DNA of 64,000 bases from an uncultured bacterium (GTDB lineage Bacteria > Methylomirabilota > Methylomirabilia > Methylomirabilales > CSP1-5). The notes under the pieces were generated by a model that was not told where the DNA came from, searched no databases, and saw only the letters and a program-made list of their open reading frames with translations. Numbering within the stretch: position 1 is the stretch's first letter; the number at the start of each line of letters is the position of its first letter. The stretch spans positions 390 to 64,389 of the forward strand of contig CAZLDS010000013.1 in assembly GCA_964558395.1 (NCBI GenBank), read 5' to 3'. Shown here piece by piece: positions 1,365-8,339 of this stretch. Made by a program: the position numbers and the translations under genes.

Positions 1365-3041
1365 ATGGGCAAGGTTCCGGAAGGATGTCTTCCGCCCCAA
1401 GAGCTGTGGCCGGCCCGGATCTATAACCTCCCCGAGTACAAGGCCTACCCGCAGAAATTCAACAGTACCGAAGAGCTGCTGGACAAGCAGGTAGCCGCAG
1501 GGAAGGGAGATGGGCCCGCCATCCTCTTTGAGGATCGGAAAATCCCATACAAGGCGCTGCTCGGCATGGCCAACAAACTTGGCAGCAGCCTGAAAGCCTT
1601 GGGCATCGAGGAGGCGGACCGGGTGGCCTTGCGCGCCCCGAATATTCCCCCCGCGTTGGTGAGTAATTTCGCCGTCTTAAAGATCGGCGGAATCTTCCTC
1701 CCGACCTCCGCCCTCTTTTCGCGGGCCGAGATTGGTCACGTCTTTAACAATGCAGAGGTCAAGGCGGTCATCGTGGCCGGCGCGATGCTTGAGGAGCTCG
1801 AGAAGGCCAAGCCCGATTTGAAAACGTTGCAGCATATCATTGTCATTGGCGGCACGCCCGAGCAGCAGGCCGAATATAAGAAAAAAGGGTATCTCCTGTA
1901 CCAGGAGCTCGTGGATGGCGGGAAGCCGGAATGCGAACCGGTTCGCCGTGATCGGATGGATGTCTCGGTCCTGCTCTACACCTCCGGGACCACCGGTTTG
2001 CCCAAGGGGACGGTCCATTTCAATGAGGAGGCGCTGATCGTTCCCGACGGATTCGGGAAATACTGCTGGGGGGTGACCGAAAACGACGTCATCCTGAGCG
2101 CAGCGCCTATCGCGATGGCCGCCGGATACTCCGCGGTGGCTTCGATCCCCTACAGGTTCGGCGCCGCTGTCTCCATTTTTCCTCGCTTCAGCCCCGAGGG
2201 GATGCTACAGCAGATTCAAAACCACAAGGCGACGATCCTCTCGGCCCTCCCCACTGCCTATCGAAAGATGCATGAGGTTCCGGGTGCCGAGACCAAGTAC
2301 GACCTGAGTTCTCTCCGGATCTGTACGGGTGGGGGCGAGTCACTGACGGCAAAGACCTACCACGATTGGAAGGCCAAGTTCGGCCAGGAGATCTTCGAGG
2401 GGCTGGGGACCACCGAGATGATGTTTGTCTTCATCTCGGCGGCAGCCACAAAGAAGGTGAAGCCCGGATCCATCGGTCCGGCGGTTCCGGGATACGAAGT
2501 CAAGGTGATCAACGAAGAGGGGAAAGACTGCAAGCCGGGAGAAAGTGGCCAGCTCGTGGCCCGGGGCCCCACGGGGACCATGTACTGGCGCGATCCCGAG
2601 AAGCAAAAATCGGTCGTCAGGGGAGGCTGGTGCCGCGCCGGGGACATGGTCACCATGGATGAGGATGGCTACATCTGGTTCCTCTCCCGCGAGGATGATT
2701 TGATCAAGTCGTCCGGCTATCGGATTGGCCCGGAGGAGATCGAGGATGTTCTCGTCACCCACGCAGCCGTGGCGGATGCCGGCGTGGTCGGGATCCCAGA
2801 TACGGTGATGGGCCAAAAGACCAAGGCCTACGTCCAGCTCAAAGAGGGCCAGCAAGGCTCAGAGGCCCTCCAGCAGGAGCTAATCGAGTTTTGCCGGGGT
2901 AAGGTCGCCGTCTACAAGCTGCCGCGGGAGGTAGAGTTCGTGGACAAGATGCCGCGGGCAGCGGGGCCTGGCGGGCCCGGCACGGGGAAGCTCCTGCGGC
3001 GGGTCCTGAGACAGCGAGAAACAGAGAAGGCCAAGACGTAG
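1365..3041 (+). CDS. Acyl/aryl-CoA ligase (benzoate/2-aminobenzoate-CoA ligase-like ANL enzyme)
   Basis: RBS gaggagg; A3 YTSGTTGLPKG, A5 EGLGTTE, A7 RAGD, A8 REDDLIKSSGYRIGPEEIE, A10 GKLLRR. Confidence 0.9.
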   Translation: MGKVPEGCLPPQELWPARIYNLPEYKAYPQKFNSTEELLDKQVAAGKGDGPAILFEDRKIPYKALLGMANKLGSSLKALGIEEADRVALRAPNIPPALVSNFAVLKIGGIFLPTSALFSRAEIGHVFNNAEVKAVIVAGAMLEELEKAKPDLKTLQHIIVIGGTPEQQAEYKKKGYLLYQELVDGGKPECEPVRRDRMDVSVLLYTSGTTGLPKGTVHFNEEALIVPDGFGKYCWGVTENDVILSAAPIAMAAGYSAVASIPYRFGAAVSIFPRFSPEGMLQQIQNHKATILSALPTAYRKMHEVPGAETKYDLSSLRICTGGGESLTAKTYHDWKAKFGQEIFEGLGTTEMMFVFISAAATKKVKPGSIGPAVPGYEVKVINEEGKDCKPGESGQLVARGPTGTMYWRDPEKQKSVVRGGWCRAGDMVTMDEDGYIWFLSREDDLIKSSGYRIGPEEIEDVLVTHAAVADAGVVGIPDTVMGQKTKAYVQLKEGQQGSEALQQELIEFCRGKVAVYKLPREVEFVDKMPRAAGPGGPGTGKLLRRVLRQRETEKAKT

Positions 3042-3062: not shown

Positions 3063-3099
3063 AAAGAAGGGCCCGGGAATATTCCGGGCCCTTCTTTTT
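3063..3099 (+). terminator. Intrinsic terminator after the CoA ligase
   Basis: Stem gaagggcccgg (3066-3076) / ccgggcccttc (3084-3094) followed by a T run. Confidence 0.85.
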
Positions 3100-3128
3100 G
3101 TTGCCTCGCGTAATCTGCTTTCAGTAGT

Positions 3129-3398
3129 ATGAAACTTGCATCGAGTTTTGGCAGCGACGTTTGCCTGGGAGGCCGAGTGGCGCGACTGAGCATTGAGGAC
3201 CGCAGCATCTTCCAGCTCCTCGTTCCGTGTCCGATGCATGGGATGATGATTACCATTCCCGAGTGCGAGGTATGTCCCTTTCATGGTGGCGTCTCTAAAG
3301 AGCACCACCATTTCCCCGATGATTCGTATGTGACCGGATACGTCGATTGCCGATATATTGGCGCCGAAGATGAGGAGCCGAAGGTGGAGGAGGGATGA
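3129..3398 (+). CDS. Small Cys/His-rich putative metal-binding protein
   Basis: 89 aa with CPMH...CEVCPFH...HHH...C; fills the gap between terminator and iclR promoter. Confidence 0.5.
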   Translation: MKLASSFGSDVCLGGRVARLSIEDRSIFQLLVPCPMHGMMITIPECEVCPFHGGVSKEHHHFPDDSYVTGYVDCRYIGAEDEEPKVEEG

Positions 3399-3533: not shown

Positions 3534-3562
3534 TTGACAGAACAGAATCTGCGCTGTTTAAT
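3534..3562 (+). promoter_or_regulatory. Sigma70-type promoter of iclR
   Basis: TTGACA 3534-3539, 17-bp spacer, TTTAAT 3557-3562. Confidence 0.7.
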
Positions 3563-3573
3563 GATGAGAACGT

Positions 3574-3591
3574 CGTTCTGTATGTAGAACG
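3574..3591. promoter_or_regulatory. Candidate IclR operator 1
   Basis: Spaced palindrome CGTTCT-gtatgt-AGAACG just downstream of the -10. Confidence 0.6.
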
Positions 3592-3605
3592 AATAGGAGC
3601 CATCG

Positions 3606-4379
3606 GTGGGAGAAGATCGAGTGCCGGCGGTGGAGAGCGCGGTCCGGATCCTGAAGTTTCTGAAGGATCGGAACCACCGCCCGTGGGGGGTCTCGGAGCT
3701 GAGCCGGCCCCTCCAAGTCAACAAAAGCACGTGCTTCAACATTCTCAAGTCGTTAGCCCGGCATGGCCTGGTCGCCTATGACGAAGGGACGAAGAAGTAC
3801 GGCCTGGGATCGGGTCTCATCGAACTTGGGGGGGCCGCCTCGACGGCCACCAGCCGAGCGACGGTGGGAAGGCCCTTCCTGCAGGACCTCTTTGACGAGC
3901 TGAAGTTGACATGTCTGTTGGGTCAGCGATTTCAGGACCAAGTCATCATCGTCGATCGGGTGGAGGCTCTAGATCCCTTCCGGATCACAATTCCCGTGGG
4001 TCAGGCCCTCCCCGTGGGCCAGGGTGCCCTTGGACGGTGCTTTCTCGCGTACCTTCCGGAGGCGGATCTGGACCACCTGTGGTCACAGGGTGTGCTAGAG
4101 CAGGCCGATCCCCACAGAGGGCAACCGGTCGCCCAGATCTTGAAAGCCTTGGCCAAAGTCCGGCATCACGGATTTGCCGAGAGCTTTGGAGAAATCGCCA
4201 AGGGCGTGAATGCTGTGGCCGCCCCGATCTTCGATCACCGGGGTCATGTGGCACTGGCCCTTGGGGTGATTGGGTTTGCTTCCCTGCTTCCCCCCCGCCG
4301 ACTGGCCCACTGCGGCCGAAAGCTCCGCGAGGTCTCGGGGCTTATCTCCCGCATTATGGGAGGGCAGTCAAGACCCTGA
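3606..4379 (+). CDS. IclR-family transcriptional regulator
   Basis: VPAVESAVRIL, HTH GVSELSRPLQVNKSTCFNILKSL, C-terminal GALGRCFLAY and GVNAVAAPIFD...ALALGV. Confidence 0.92.
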   Translation: MGEDRVPAVESAVRILKFLKDRNHRPWGVSELSRPLQVNKSTCFNILKSLARHGLVAYDEGTKKYGLGSGLIELGGAASTATSRATVGRPFLQDLFDELKLTCLLGQRFQDQVIIVDRVEALDPFRITIPVGQALPVGQGALGRCFLAYLPEADLDHLWSQGVLEQADPHRGQPVAQILKALAKVRHHGFAESFGEIAKGVNAVAAPIFDHRGHVALALGVIGFASLLPPRRLAHCGRKLREVSGLISRIMGGQSRP

Positions 4380-4387
4380 AGTTCCCC

Positions 4388-4416
4388 TTGACGAGACCGA
4401 ATCCAGGTGCTATTCT
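4388..4416 (+). promoter_or_regulatory. Sigma70-type promoter of the U32 operon
   Basis: TTGACG 4388-4393, 17-bp spacer, TGc-TATTCT 4411-4416. Confidence 0.7.
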
Positions 4417-4427
4417 GCCAAGGGTAT

Positions 4428-4445
4428 CGTTCTATTGGTCGAACG
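4428..4445. promoter_or_regulatory. Candidate IclR operator 2
   Basis: CGTTCT-attggt-CGAACG, same arms and spacing as operator 1, between -10 and RBS. Confidence 0.6.
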
Positions 4446-4458
4446 GACGAGGACTCCT

Positions 4459-5382
4459 ATGTCGCTTATGGGTCGGGGAATCCTCTTGGCTCCTGCAGGG
4501 AGCGTGCAGGCGGCGAAGGCCGGCCTGGAGGCCGGGGCGGACGCGATCTATGTGGGACTCAAGGGGTGGAGCCGGGGAGGAGCCCGAGGCGAGCTGACCT
4601 CAGAGGAACTCCTGCGGGTTCTGGCGCTTGCCCGCGAAATGGGAAGAGCCGTCCAGCTTGCCGTCAACACCATCCCCAAAGGGCGCGAGGTCGATTTTCT
4701 GATCGAACGCCTCGGTGAAGTTACGGGCTGGGGGATTGGGGGAGTCATCCTCAACGACCCCGGTATCCTTGCCCGCATCCACGAATGCTACCCTGACCTA
4801 CCCCTGACCGCGAGTATCGGCTGTGGCGCGCTCAATCTGGACGATGTCGCCTTGCTGGAGGAAATTGGCGCCAGCTGCATCGTCCTGCCGGGGACGCTCG
4901 ATCCTGAGGAAGTCGCCGAGATCCGGCCCCATGTCAAAGCCCAGATCGAGGTCATGATCCACATGGTGGATGAGTTTCACCAACTGGGAAAGTGCTGGAT
5001 GCCAACCTATTACCGGACGAATCCCGCTCCAATGCCGGAGATGCCGGCTGACGGTGAGCGGCTCACCGGATCGATCAAGCGGGGCGGCGTGGGTATCTGC
5101 TTCAAAGTCTGCCAACAACCCTGGACCCTCTATCTGAATGCACAGGACAAGGGAGAACGCATTCTCCCGGCCCGGCAGGTGTCGCGGGTCCCTGAGGTCG
5201 GTGCCTACATCGAGGCAGGGATCGATGTGATCAAGCTGCAGGGAAGAAGCCTCCACCCGGACCAGGTTTTTTCCCTGGTCCGGCGGTTCCGCGTGGCCAT
5301 GGACCACGTCCGAAATGGTGGTCAGGACTTCGAGTTGCTGCCGTTTGAGCTGCCGGCCTCCTGGGTGGTGGTCGGACGATGA
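4459..5382 (+). CDS. U32-family Fe-S protein, UbiU-like copy A
   Basis: Start set at ATG 4459 after gagga; LLAPAGS, GADAIYVG, ILNDPG, KCW, CFKVC, IKLQGR. Confidence 0.88.
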   Translation: MSLMGRGILLAPAGSVQAAKAGLEAGADAIYVGLKGWSRGGARGELTSEELLRVLALAREMGRAVQLAVNTIPKGREVDFLIERLGEVTGWGIGGVILNDPGILARIHECYPDLPLTASIGCGALNLDDVALLEEIGASCIVLPGTLDPEEVAEIRPHVKAQIEVMIHMVDEFHQLGKCWMPTYYRTNPAPMPEMPADGERLTGSIKRGGVGICFKVCQQPWTLYLNAQDKGERILPARQVSRVPEVGAYIEAGIDVIKLQGRSLHPDQVFSLVRRFRVAMDHVRNGGQDFELLPFELPASWVVVGR

Positions 5383-5403
5383 TTAAGCGAGGACCGATGA
5401 CAT

Positions 5404-5491
5404 TTCGAATTCCGACATTCGAATTTCGGATTTGTGGACTCCCCCTTCTTGCTCTCGGCGACTTCGGACATCGGACGTCGGACATCGGACG
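5404..5491. repeat. Heptamer tandem repeats between U32 genes
   Basis: TCGGAC(A/G) x4 at 5464-5491 plus TTCGAAT-type units. Confidence 0.8.
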
Positions 5492-5498
5492 GTGAATC

Positions 5499-6449
5499 AT
5501 GAACCCTGAACCGTTTGAACTGAATACGTCGATCTCCAATATGAAGGACCTCATGGTCTCGGACCTCGGTCCGTATGACGCGATCTACCTCGGGAATCCC
5601 TACTGTCGGGACTATGAAGCCAATTTCTTGGAAGACCTGGATGATCTGCGGGCCGGCATCCGCCGCTGCCGTGAGAAGGGCCGTAGAGTCTATCTCACGA
5701 CCTATGCGGCCCCTCGAAACTACTTCCTGCCACAAATCCGTCGGGCAATTGCCGTTGCGGCAGAGGAAGGGGTGGACGCCGTTGAGGCGCACAACCTTGG
5801 GGTGGTTCGGATCGTTCACCGGGAGTTTCCCTCCCTCGCGATCCACATCGGCGGCTTTGCCAATGTCTACACCGATGCGGGAGCCGAGGTTCTCCGCGAC
5901 TACGGCGGGACCCGCGTGACGCCCAACTACGAGCTCTCCCTGGAAGAGATGGAAGGGATGGCGAAAAGTACCCGCCTCCCGCTCGAAATCCTCGTCCACG
6001 GGAAGGTGCCGTTAGGGATCTCCGACTACTGCTTCCTGTTGGAGTTCGAAAAGGCCTGGGGGATGCCATGTCCGGATCTGTGCCAGCAGGACCTGTTCCT
6101 CCGTCAGGGGGAGTGGGCGATGAAGTCGGTAGGGAAAGGGATCCTAAGCGGTCGGGATGTCTGTATGCTGGAGCATCTGCCGCGTCTCGGGGCGGCGGGC
6201 TTTCGCGTGTTCCGAATCGAGGCAATCTCGGAGGATCCCGCGTACCGTCGAGACATCGGGGCGGTCTACCGGGAGGCCTTGGAGCACGCGTTCAGTGATG
6301 GCTACGAGATTCGTGATGCGTGGTGGCAAAAGATCCAGGCCCACGCAAAGGTAGGAGTGTGTAACGGGTTCTACTTTGGTCAATCGGGACAACTTTATAT
6401 TGGCAATCAGCAATCGGCCGTCGGCGATCAGCTCAGGATCATTTCCTAA
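5499..6449 (+). CDS. U32-family Fe-S protein, UbiV-like
   Basis: YDAIYLGNPYC, VEAHNLG, ELS, PLGISDYC-x12-C-x3-C, FRIE; Cys layout matches UbiV. Confidence 0.88.
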   Translation: MNPEPFELNTSISNMKDLMVSDLGPYDAIYLGNPYCRDYEANFLEDLDDLRAGIRRCREKGRRVYLTTYAAPRNYFLPQIRRAIAVAAEEGVDAVEAHNLGVVRIVHREFPSLAIHIGGFANVYTDAGAEVLRDYGGTRVTPNYELSLEEMEGMAKSTRLPLEILVHGKVPLGISDYCFLLEFEKAWGMPCPDLCQQDLFLRQGEWAMKSVGKGILSGRDVCMLEHLPRLGAAGFRVFRIEAISEDPAYRRDIGAVYREALEHAFSDGYEIRDAWWQKIQAHAKVGVCNGFYFGQSGQLYIGNQQSAVGDQLRIIS

Positions 6450-7774: not shown

Positions 7775-8233
7775 TTATCTCCGCCAGCGTGTCAGGCGCC
7801 GGGCGGTCAGTTCTCCCCAGAGGAAGGTGAAAAGCGCGTGGCGGGCCGTCTTGCGAATCCGATCGTAGTGGCGACACGTCCCTTCCGCAAAGTGGGTACG
7901 CGTGCCGTTGGCGCGGCAGAGGAGGACCCGCCCGGAGACCGCATTGTGGCGGAGGCCCAGCGGCGCGACATTGAGGACCGTAACATCTACTGGGAGATGG
8001 AGCGCTCGGCTGAGGTCCTTCGCGAGAGTCATCTGGTATTGGTGAACGGCTCGCCGGGTCAGATGGCCATTATCCAGGTAGACCGCCACGTCGATATCCC
8101 GAAATCTCGATCCGTTGATGAAGGAACCGTGGAGATACGCGAAGAGGACCTCTTCGCGGAATGCCAGCAGGTCATGGAGGGCGGAGGTGACGTGCGCCTT
8201 TTCTCGAGAGGTCAGTCGATACCTGGCGTACAT
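7775..8233 (-). CDS. Minimal nucleotidyltransferase (MntA-like)
   Basis: FAYLHGSF...RDIDVAVYL and VDVTVLNVAPLGLR, the MNT signature. Confidence 0.8.
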   Translation of the reverse strand: MYARYRLTSREKAHVTSALHDLLAFREEVLFAYLHGSFINGSRFRDIDVAVYLDNGHLTRRAVHQYQMTLAKDLSRALHLPVDVTVLNVAPLGLRHNAVSGRVLLCRANGTRTHFAEGTCRHYDRIRKTARHALFTFLWGELTARRLTRWRR

Positions 8234-8339
8234 GGCCTATGGCCTCAACGTCTGTGACGGCTCGGTCCCCCTCGGGTCCTTGTCAAAGCGGCAGTACTCG
8301 ACACGGTTGGGAAAACCATACGATAAAAGGCACGAACAA

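Follow-up and report, generated by a model that had tools for sequence, protein, structure and literature searches.

A predicted operator shared by an IclR-family regulator gene and the adjacent U32 operon in Methylomirabilota

Background

In the stretch of DNA analysed here, 64,000 nucleotides from an uncultured member of the phylum NC10/Methylomirabilota that we refer to as the window, a gene for an IclR-family protein is followed on the same strand by three genes for U32 proteins, and two similar 18-bp palindromes stand in front of the two units. Which protein recognizes these palindromes, what would its binding do, and how many promoters are concerned? A sequence-only reading had taken them for the site of an autoregulated repressor, defining a small regulon that the motif could be used to map genome-wide. 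Comparison of related genomes indicates that the palindromes are very probably the regulator's own binding sites, an ordinary arrangement for the IclR family. The fuller reading, in which they would serve as operators of an IclR-family repressor of itself and of the U32a-b-c operon, with a regulon of two adjacent promoters, is one that we consider likely.

Promoters and predicted operators

The features of the two promoters are as follows, with coordinates given in the window.

3534-3539, + strand: -35 element of the predicted iclR promoter, TTGACA; TTGAC is invariant in 18 aligned promoters
3557-3562, + strand: -10 element of the predicted iclR promoter, TTTAAT, after a 17-nt spacer
3555-3572, no strand: predicted distal, degenerate iclR operator, TGTTTAATGATGAGAACG, overlapping the -10
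3574-3591, no strand: predicted proximal iclR operator, CGTTCTGTATGTAGAACG, CGTTCT GTATGT AGAACG
3606-4379, + strand: iclR gene, 257 aa, GTG start, with a GGAG ribosome-binding site at 3596-3599
4388-4393, + strand: -35 element of the U32 promoter, TTGACG; TTGAC is invariant in 18 loci
4408-4416, + strand: extended -10 element of the U32 promoter, TG-c-TATTCT, after a 17-nt spacer, with the TG present and 9 of 12 matches
4428-4445, no strand: predicted U32 operator, CGTTCTATTGGTCGAACG, CGTTCT ATTGGT CGAACG
4459-5382, + strand: U32a, first gene of the operon and predicted to be regulated, 307 aa, PF01136

The sequence confirms the earlier observation that the two palindromes each lie just past a promoter, one before iclR and one before the first U32 gene, and the gap from -10 to palindrome is 11 nt in both cases. 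The site at 3574-3591 is a perfect 6+6 palindrome centred 23.5 nt 5' of the GTG start, while the U32 site is a single 5+5 palindrome centred 22.5 nt 5' of the ATG. The -35 of the U32 promoter is found 9 nt past the iclR stop codon. A scan for consensus promoters returned the U32 promoter only, its rule demanding an A at the second position of the -10, which TTTAAT does not have.

The iclR promoter contains a third box, AGAACG at 3567-3572, one base 5' of the proximal site, that the sequence-only reading had missed. This box is the right half of the distal site, whose left half doubles as the iclR -10. The resulting layout, AGAACG-T-CGTTCT-N6-AGAACG, is that of a predicted three-box, 19-bp tandem operator. 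We looked for a second weak site beside the U32 operator and found none. The U32 site has a further peculiarity in its spacer, where a GG at positions 10-11 (window 4437-4438) is invariant in 9/9 distinct orthologous U32 sites and makes the site asymmetric; the sites at the iclR promoter are without it.

Sequencing runs with this stretch were found among DNA metagenomes only, from sediment, mangrove and soil, and a search for RNA runs gave none. Of the strain variants listed from four metagenomes, two affect the first base past each operator (3592 and 4446), and the operators and promoter hexamers themselves contain none of those listed.

The predicted operators occupy positions of about +5 to +22, and in front of iclR there is overlap with the -10; both fit repression and autoregulation. 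An activating role deserves consideration, since the IclR family includes activators and dual regulators (PMC8222616), so that the adjacent protein might bind the same sites and activate, or dually regulate, the U32 promoter. We regard this as unlikely: the sites overlap or lie 3' of the -10, where binding normally hinders RNA polymerase, a position weight matrix (PWM) scan of the locus gave no motif site 5' of either -35, and a U32 promoter with a near-consensus -35 and an extended -10 should not need activation.

Conservation at loci that carry the regulator

Orthologs of the regulator were found in 18 of 251 genomes and in 2 of 68 genera of the phylum. The 18 iclR loci are the window plus those of 17 further genomes from two NC10 genera, with regulator identities of 54-91 % to the window's protein: 12 genomes belong to the window's genus (76-91 % identity) and 6 to a second genus (54-56 %). 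Far from being absent at orthologous promoters, the motif is kept at both promoters in all 18 loci.

When the 18 iclR promoters and the 18 U32 promoters are aligned, the sole invariant blocks are the -35 (TTGAC), the -10 and GTTC-N8-GAAC, with a site consensus of YGTTC-K-N6-M-GAAC-R. The iclR -10 reads GTTTAAT, GTTTACT or GTTTAGT in 12/12 same-genus loci, and the TG-n-TA of the U32 promoter is kept in 18/18. Both GTTC and GAAC of the proximal iclR site are invariant in 15 distinct orthologous sequences, as are, among same-genus loci, GTT and GAAC of the distal site. This distal site has the full form TGTTCG-N6-(A/G)GAACG, directly past the -10 (for example TGTTCGCGTGAAGGAACG), in 5 of 6 loci of the second genus; in the sixth, L023, it is degenerate (GAGAC). 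Wherever a distal site was detected (17/17 loci, that of L023 being degenerate) it is spaced 19 bp from the proximal one. Counted from the first base of the -35, the site starts 39-41 bp further on at the U32 promoter in 18/18 loci and, for the primary iclR site, in the window's genus. The core half-sites are identical in all orthologs, an invariance that leaves no room to demonstrate co-evolution between the protein and its site.

Gene order is likewise constant in 10 of 10 extended loci, running from small ORFs through the ligase, iclR and U32a-b-c to a convergent TPR gene. The distance from operator to operator is 842, 848, 854-855, 858 or 873-875 bp depending on the locus. Helical phasing is thus not conserved, and DNA looping between the operators, which we also considered, is neither favoured nor disfavoured.

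These data also address the possibility that the two promoters resemble each other by chance. Base composition predicts about 0.07 exact sites in 64 kb and two are present, at equal offset from two promoters 854 bp apart. Once a mismatch is allowed the count becomes uninformative, 5 in the window against 3.15 expected from shuffling, and this failure to rise above expectation is what speaks for chance. Retention of the sites in the 17 further genomes, even where the regulator is as little as 54 % identical, effectively refutes it, leaving a probability that we consider negligible.

The palindromes could also work as RNA, forming hairpins in the two 5' leaders that affect stability or translation, and not as DNA operators. 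If the promoters are predicted correctly, both palindromes would end up in the transcripts, and a stem of 5-8 bp can form from either of them. The leader folds are no more stable than those of shuffled sequences (z of -0.82 and -0.22), however, and no Rfam family matches the leaders. Pairing is not kept outside the core, where positions 6/13 fail to pair in 6 of 9 U32 sites and positions 1/18 face each other as C-A in several, and the distal iclR site lies largely 5' of the predicted start. An RNA role is therefore very improbable in our estimation, and we retain the DNA operator as the preferred reading.

Loci without the regulator

A natural control is provided by the U32a-b-c trio, whose distribution (59 of the 251 genomes, 13 genera) is wider than that of the regulator. 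We examined 12 trio loci of the same phylum that have no iclR (U32a identity 51-57 %), 11 of them with upstream sequence. The motif is absent 5' of U32a in 11/11, with a best PWM score of at most 4.5 within 300 bp; for comparison, the 99th percentile of random 300-bp windows is 7.7, and iclR-bearing loci score 20.5-22.7 at the U32-promoter sites and 21.6-27.3 at the proximal iclR sites. With 18/18 loci positive in the presence of iclR and 0/11 in its absence, motif and regulator gene occur strictly together. The independent lineages behind this contrast are few, two genera with iclR and about four without, so that 18 to 0 carries no formal probability.

This co-occurrence weighs on the identity of the binding protein. 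GTTC/GAAC half-sites are used by further regulators too; the LexA boxes of Gram-positive bacteria, for instance, have them in the opposite orientation. It could be argued that a different transcription factor encoded elsewhere recognizes the palindromes and that the proximity of iclR is incidental. Such a factor would have to follow iclR exactly across the loci with and without the gene. The motif fits the IclR-family class and is essentially confined to this locus genome-wide. A factor with only two targets, both flanking the gene of another regulator, is also unparsimonious, and we judge this explanation to be quite improbable beside recognition by the adjacent IclR protein.

The ligase directly precedes U32a in 4 of the 12 loci without iclR. 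In these (L077, L081, L083 and L084, from genomes G017, G019, G028 and G025) U32a-b-c comes next after the ligase, separated from it by a terminator and a different promoter. Where they are present, iclR and its predicted operators fill this ligase-U32 gap. Set side by side, the loci that have iclR and those that lack it offer a clean example of a regulator-plus-site cassette confined to some lineages.

The iclR-less U32 promoters of one genus, g7 (L079:60-100 and L081:1420-1460), have a near-palindrome of their own over the -35, TTGCGAA-N2-3-TTCGCAA or TTTCGTAA, which may be the operator of another regulator.

Distribution of the motif across the genome

If the motif marked a wider regulon, scanning this genome and its relatives should reveal the rest of the pathway, as the sequence-only reading had anticipated. 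The scans of 18 genomes do not bear this out: no excess is left once the local sites are removed, and the non-local matches are at control level and point to no further pathway genes. The strict pattern YGTTCK-N6-MGAACR occurs 81 times in the 18 genomes, of which 36 are local and 45 are not, and the reversed control likewise gives 45. In three genomes (G003, G007 and G009) it occurs nowhere outside this locus. The exact CGTTC-N8-GAACG is found 8 times in the 3.27-Mb, 59 % G+C genome, compared with 2-6 times when the spacing is changed and 5 times for the reversed control, and the remaining six exact sites all fall within long ORFs.

A PWM scan of the genome, with a matrix built from the same orthologous sites that it ranks top, places the sites of the window first (3574-3591, score 24.9) and second (4428-4445, score 22.2). 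The third-best match, C99:8316, lies at a contig end within what looks like broken phage-like coding sequence and is probably fortuitous. The end of this contig in genome G000 (C99:8100-8333) resembles a phage terminase-type coding region broken by an in-frame stop. We considered a wider regulon among the next-best matches and rejected it, as these lie inside ORFs (C119:74, C166, C20 and C21, with the conserved ILLVEQNA segment of an ABC ATPase). Around the locus itself, no further site scoring at least 11 was found within about 20 kb in 10 relatives.

The acyl-CoA ligase upstream was also considered as a target, and this too was rejected: there is no site upstream of the ligase operon and a strong terminator at 3066-3100 separates the units. 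From these sequence scans the predicted regulon is purely local and comprises two adjacent promoters only.

The regulator

The protein has the two domains expected of the family. An N-terminal winged helix-turn-helix domain (PF09339) is recognized at residues 9-59 with 33.9 bits against a cut-off of 22, and a C-terminal effector-binding domain (PF01614) at residues 87-249 with 103.6 bits against a cut-off of 24. Its closest solved structure is 5tjj, an uncharacterised IclR-family protein (E of 1.3e-33 over residues 5-256), and it also matches the structures of KdgR, TM0065 (1mkm), BlcR and TtgV. The helix-turn-helix stretch RNHRPWGVSELSR..NKSTC, which covers the region of the recognition helix, is invariant across orthologs. 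The protein is no equivalog of BhcR, PcaR/PcaU, KdgR, AllR or IclR. The best NCBIfam score is 101.9 (BhcR) against a cut-off of 350, and with all such scores far below their cut-offs we assign the regulator to an unnamed subfamily.

Relatives carry a second IclR paralog, 28 % identical, 6-7 kb upstream of the locus (L040:2748-6466 in relative G002). Downstream of it come, in this order, two family-III CoA-transferase genes, the small ORFs and the ligase; in terms of the window this region lies 5' of its start. The combination of an IclR paralog, CoA-transferases and a ligase makes the wider region in relatives look like a locus that handles an organic acid in the form of its CoA ester. We considered the paralog as the binder of the palindromes and rejected it, since its own flanks in relatives are without the motif on either side.

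The U32 operon and its neighbours

The genes surrounding iclR and U32a are the following.

1365-3041, upstream of iclR: AMP-forming acyl-CoA ligase, with its strong hairpin terminator at 3066-3100
5499-6449, + strand: U32b, UbiV-like, 316 aa, PF01136
6450-7451, + strand: U32c, UbiU/TrhP-like, 333 aa, PF01136
7504-7749, + strand: small CxxC...CxxC ORF, 3' of U32c
about 7775-8257, + strand: conserved ORF without family match, in the window's genus

The three U32 proteins match PF01136 with 84, 119 and 122 bits against a cut-off of 22.4, and their a-b-c order is kept in every relative examined. They are no equivalogs of the named families, with best scores of 121 against 440 for UbiU, 72 against 275 for UbiV and 126 against 534 for TrhP. 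U32a has only distant, below-cut-off matches to UbiU and TrhP, and a structure search with U32c, the one member of the trio searched, found no solved homolog. With regard to the four-Cys Fe-S site of UbiU/UbiV-type hydroxylases, alignment of the three copies reveals only two invariant Cys columns; elsewhere Cys is replaced by E in copy a (EFHQLGKC / CYTYLGKC) and by D in copy c (CFKVC / DYRVC). The 116-bp gap between U32a and U32b contains short direct repeats ttcgaattccgacattcgaatttcgga (window 5400-5495), and in cttcggacatcggacgtcggacatcggac a TCGGAC(A/G) unit appears four times.

Judging by strand and position, the segment 7504-8257 is the probable tail of the operon. Its second ORF, at about 7775-8257, is conserved in the same genus and was not found in the second genus. 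On the other side of iclR, the interval from the ligase terminator to the iclR promoter contains an 89-aa Cys-rich ORF (3129-3398). Only some same-genus relatives keep it: L044 has it with 64 % identity across 75 aa, L040 retains a remnant of 21 aa and others have nothing of it. It may be a decaying gene.

The ligase and the U32 trio are linked across families, with or without iclR, and their adjacency hints that both serve one pathway, with a CoA-activated acid as what it acts on.

Proposed mechanism and significance

The interpretation of the palindromes as the sites of an autoregulated repressor is supported by comparative sequence evidence, namely by their presence at both promoters in every iclR locus, their absence from loci without the gene and their fit to the family motif. 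Repression is our preferred direction of control because of where the sites lie relative to near-consensus promoter elements. In this model, one dimer of the ligand-free protein would occupy the single site of the U32 promoter, at about +5 to +22, and a dimer of dimers would probably sit on the three-box tandem site of the protein's own promoter, across the -10 and the start region. We infer that the bound regulator would block either the binding of RNA polymerase or its escape from the promoter, and would in this way repress both itself and the U32a-b-c operon. As there is no terminator between iclR and the U32 promoter, the U32 site would also block read-through. A small-molecule effector held by the C-terminal IclR domain would be expected to free the protein and induce the operon.

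The proposal in the sequence-only reading that this ligand is an aromatic acid or a CoA ester is a guess, to which there is a weak counter-argument: aromatic-metabolism genes are under-represented in the regulons of the NGT-12-ACN motif subgroup (PMC8222616), the one that the present sites resemble.

U32 proteins such as UbiU and UbiV are reported to hydroxylate their substrates without O2, prephenate serving as the oxygen donor (PMC6747719, PMC10990095). The ligase and U32a-b-c are directly adjacent in several related lineages, and in two NC10 lineages the iclR cassette stands between them. Tentatively, and with more doubt than confidence, we hypothesize that this iclR-operator cassette makes a three-subunit, UbiU/UbiV-like, O2-independent hydroxylase inducible, and that the effector is its substrate or a close metabolite, an acid or CoA ester, in a new pathway of anaerobic hydroxylation.

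As the operator is textbook IclR biology, little changes for the study of regulation. The value of the locus is practical, in that a conserved predicted protein-DNA pair sits on an uncharacterised three-gene U32 operon of uncultured NC10/Methylomirabilota. The operator provides a handle for the inducer, and a ligand-release assay on it could name the substrate of a new U32 enzyme without culturing.

Comparison with known IclR-family systems

A survey of 1340 IclR-family factors (Suvorova & Gelfand 2021, PMC8222616) distinguishes a group 1 motif, GKTYCRYW3-4RYGRAMC, from a group 2 motif, TGRAACAN1-2TGTTYCA, with three-box sites combining both arrangements. Subgroup iv of group 1, NGT-12-ACN, has the form NGTYCRAW4TYGRACN. 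In the same survey tandem sites lie 18-22 nt apart, which is taken to reflect tetramers, the commonest site centre is 22 nt 5' of the start codon, and family members generally control their own expression (PMC8222616). The sites described here share with subgroup iv the 18-bp palindrome with GT-12-AC and half-sites xGTTC/GAACx, tandem centres 19 bp apart, a centre at about -22 and a regulator gene adjoining the sites. They differ at the inner positions 6/13, which are T/A or G/C here and R/Y in the published motif. At the W4 centre it is only the iclR site that is rich in W, reading TATG, TATA or similar; the U32 sites read TTGG or AGGG, and their spacer GG is invariant and asymmetric. Neither the NC10 phylum nor U32 targets are covered in that survey.

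Three boxes of alternating direction, as found at the iclR promoter, are also known from the operators of PcaU, PobR and HmgR (PMC8222616). One pair of boxes here fits group 1 and the other, at the GAAC-N3-GTTC junction, fits group 2. PcaU, PobR and HmgR belong to aromatic catabolism in Proteobacteria and several of them are activators, whereas the boxes here overlap the -10 and the start region. The protein itself is no PcaR/PcaU equivalog, the corresponding model scoring 86.9 bits against a cut-off of 284.75.

TtgV and BlcR (PDB 2xrn/2xro and 3mq0) are IclR-family repressors that bind tandem operators as tetramers and are released by ligand. Their homology to the present regulator is full-length but distant (E of about 1e-11). 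The tandem site at the iclR promoter is compatible with a dimer of dimers of this kind, and repression of an adjacent operon is likewise what we propose here, while the U32 promoter differs in having one palindrome and not two.

E. coli IclR, the aceBAK repressor, is autoregulated and its site overlaps promoter elements of the operon that it controls, as we propose for the present regulator. Its motif is a 7-1-7 box of the TGGAAAT type, different from the one described here, its target operon is unrelated, and its equivalog model gives the present protein 56 bits against a cut-off of 380. Taken together, the third box with its tandem site extends the earlier observation, and the locus adds a further predicted pair of IclR regulator and operator to an arrangement that is itself known: in geometry, tandem spacing, three-box layout and centre position, the sites fit the published family class.
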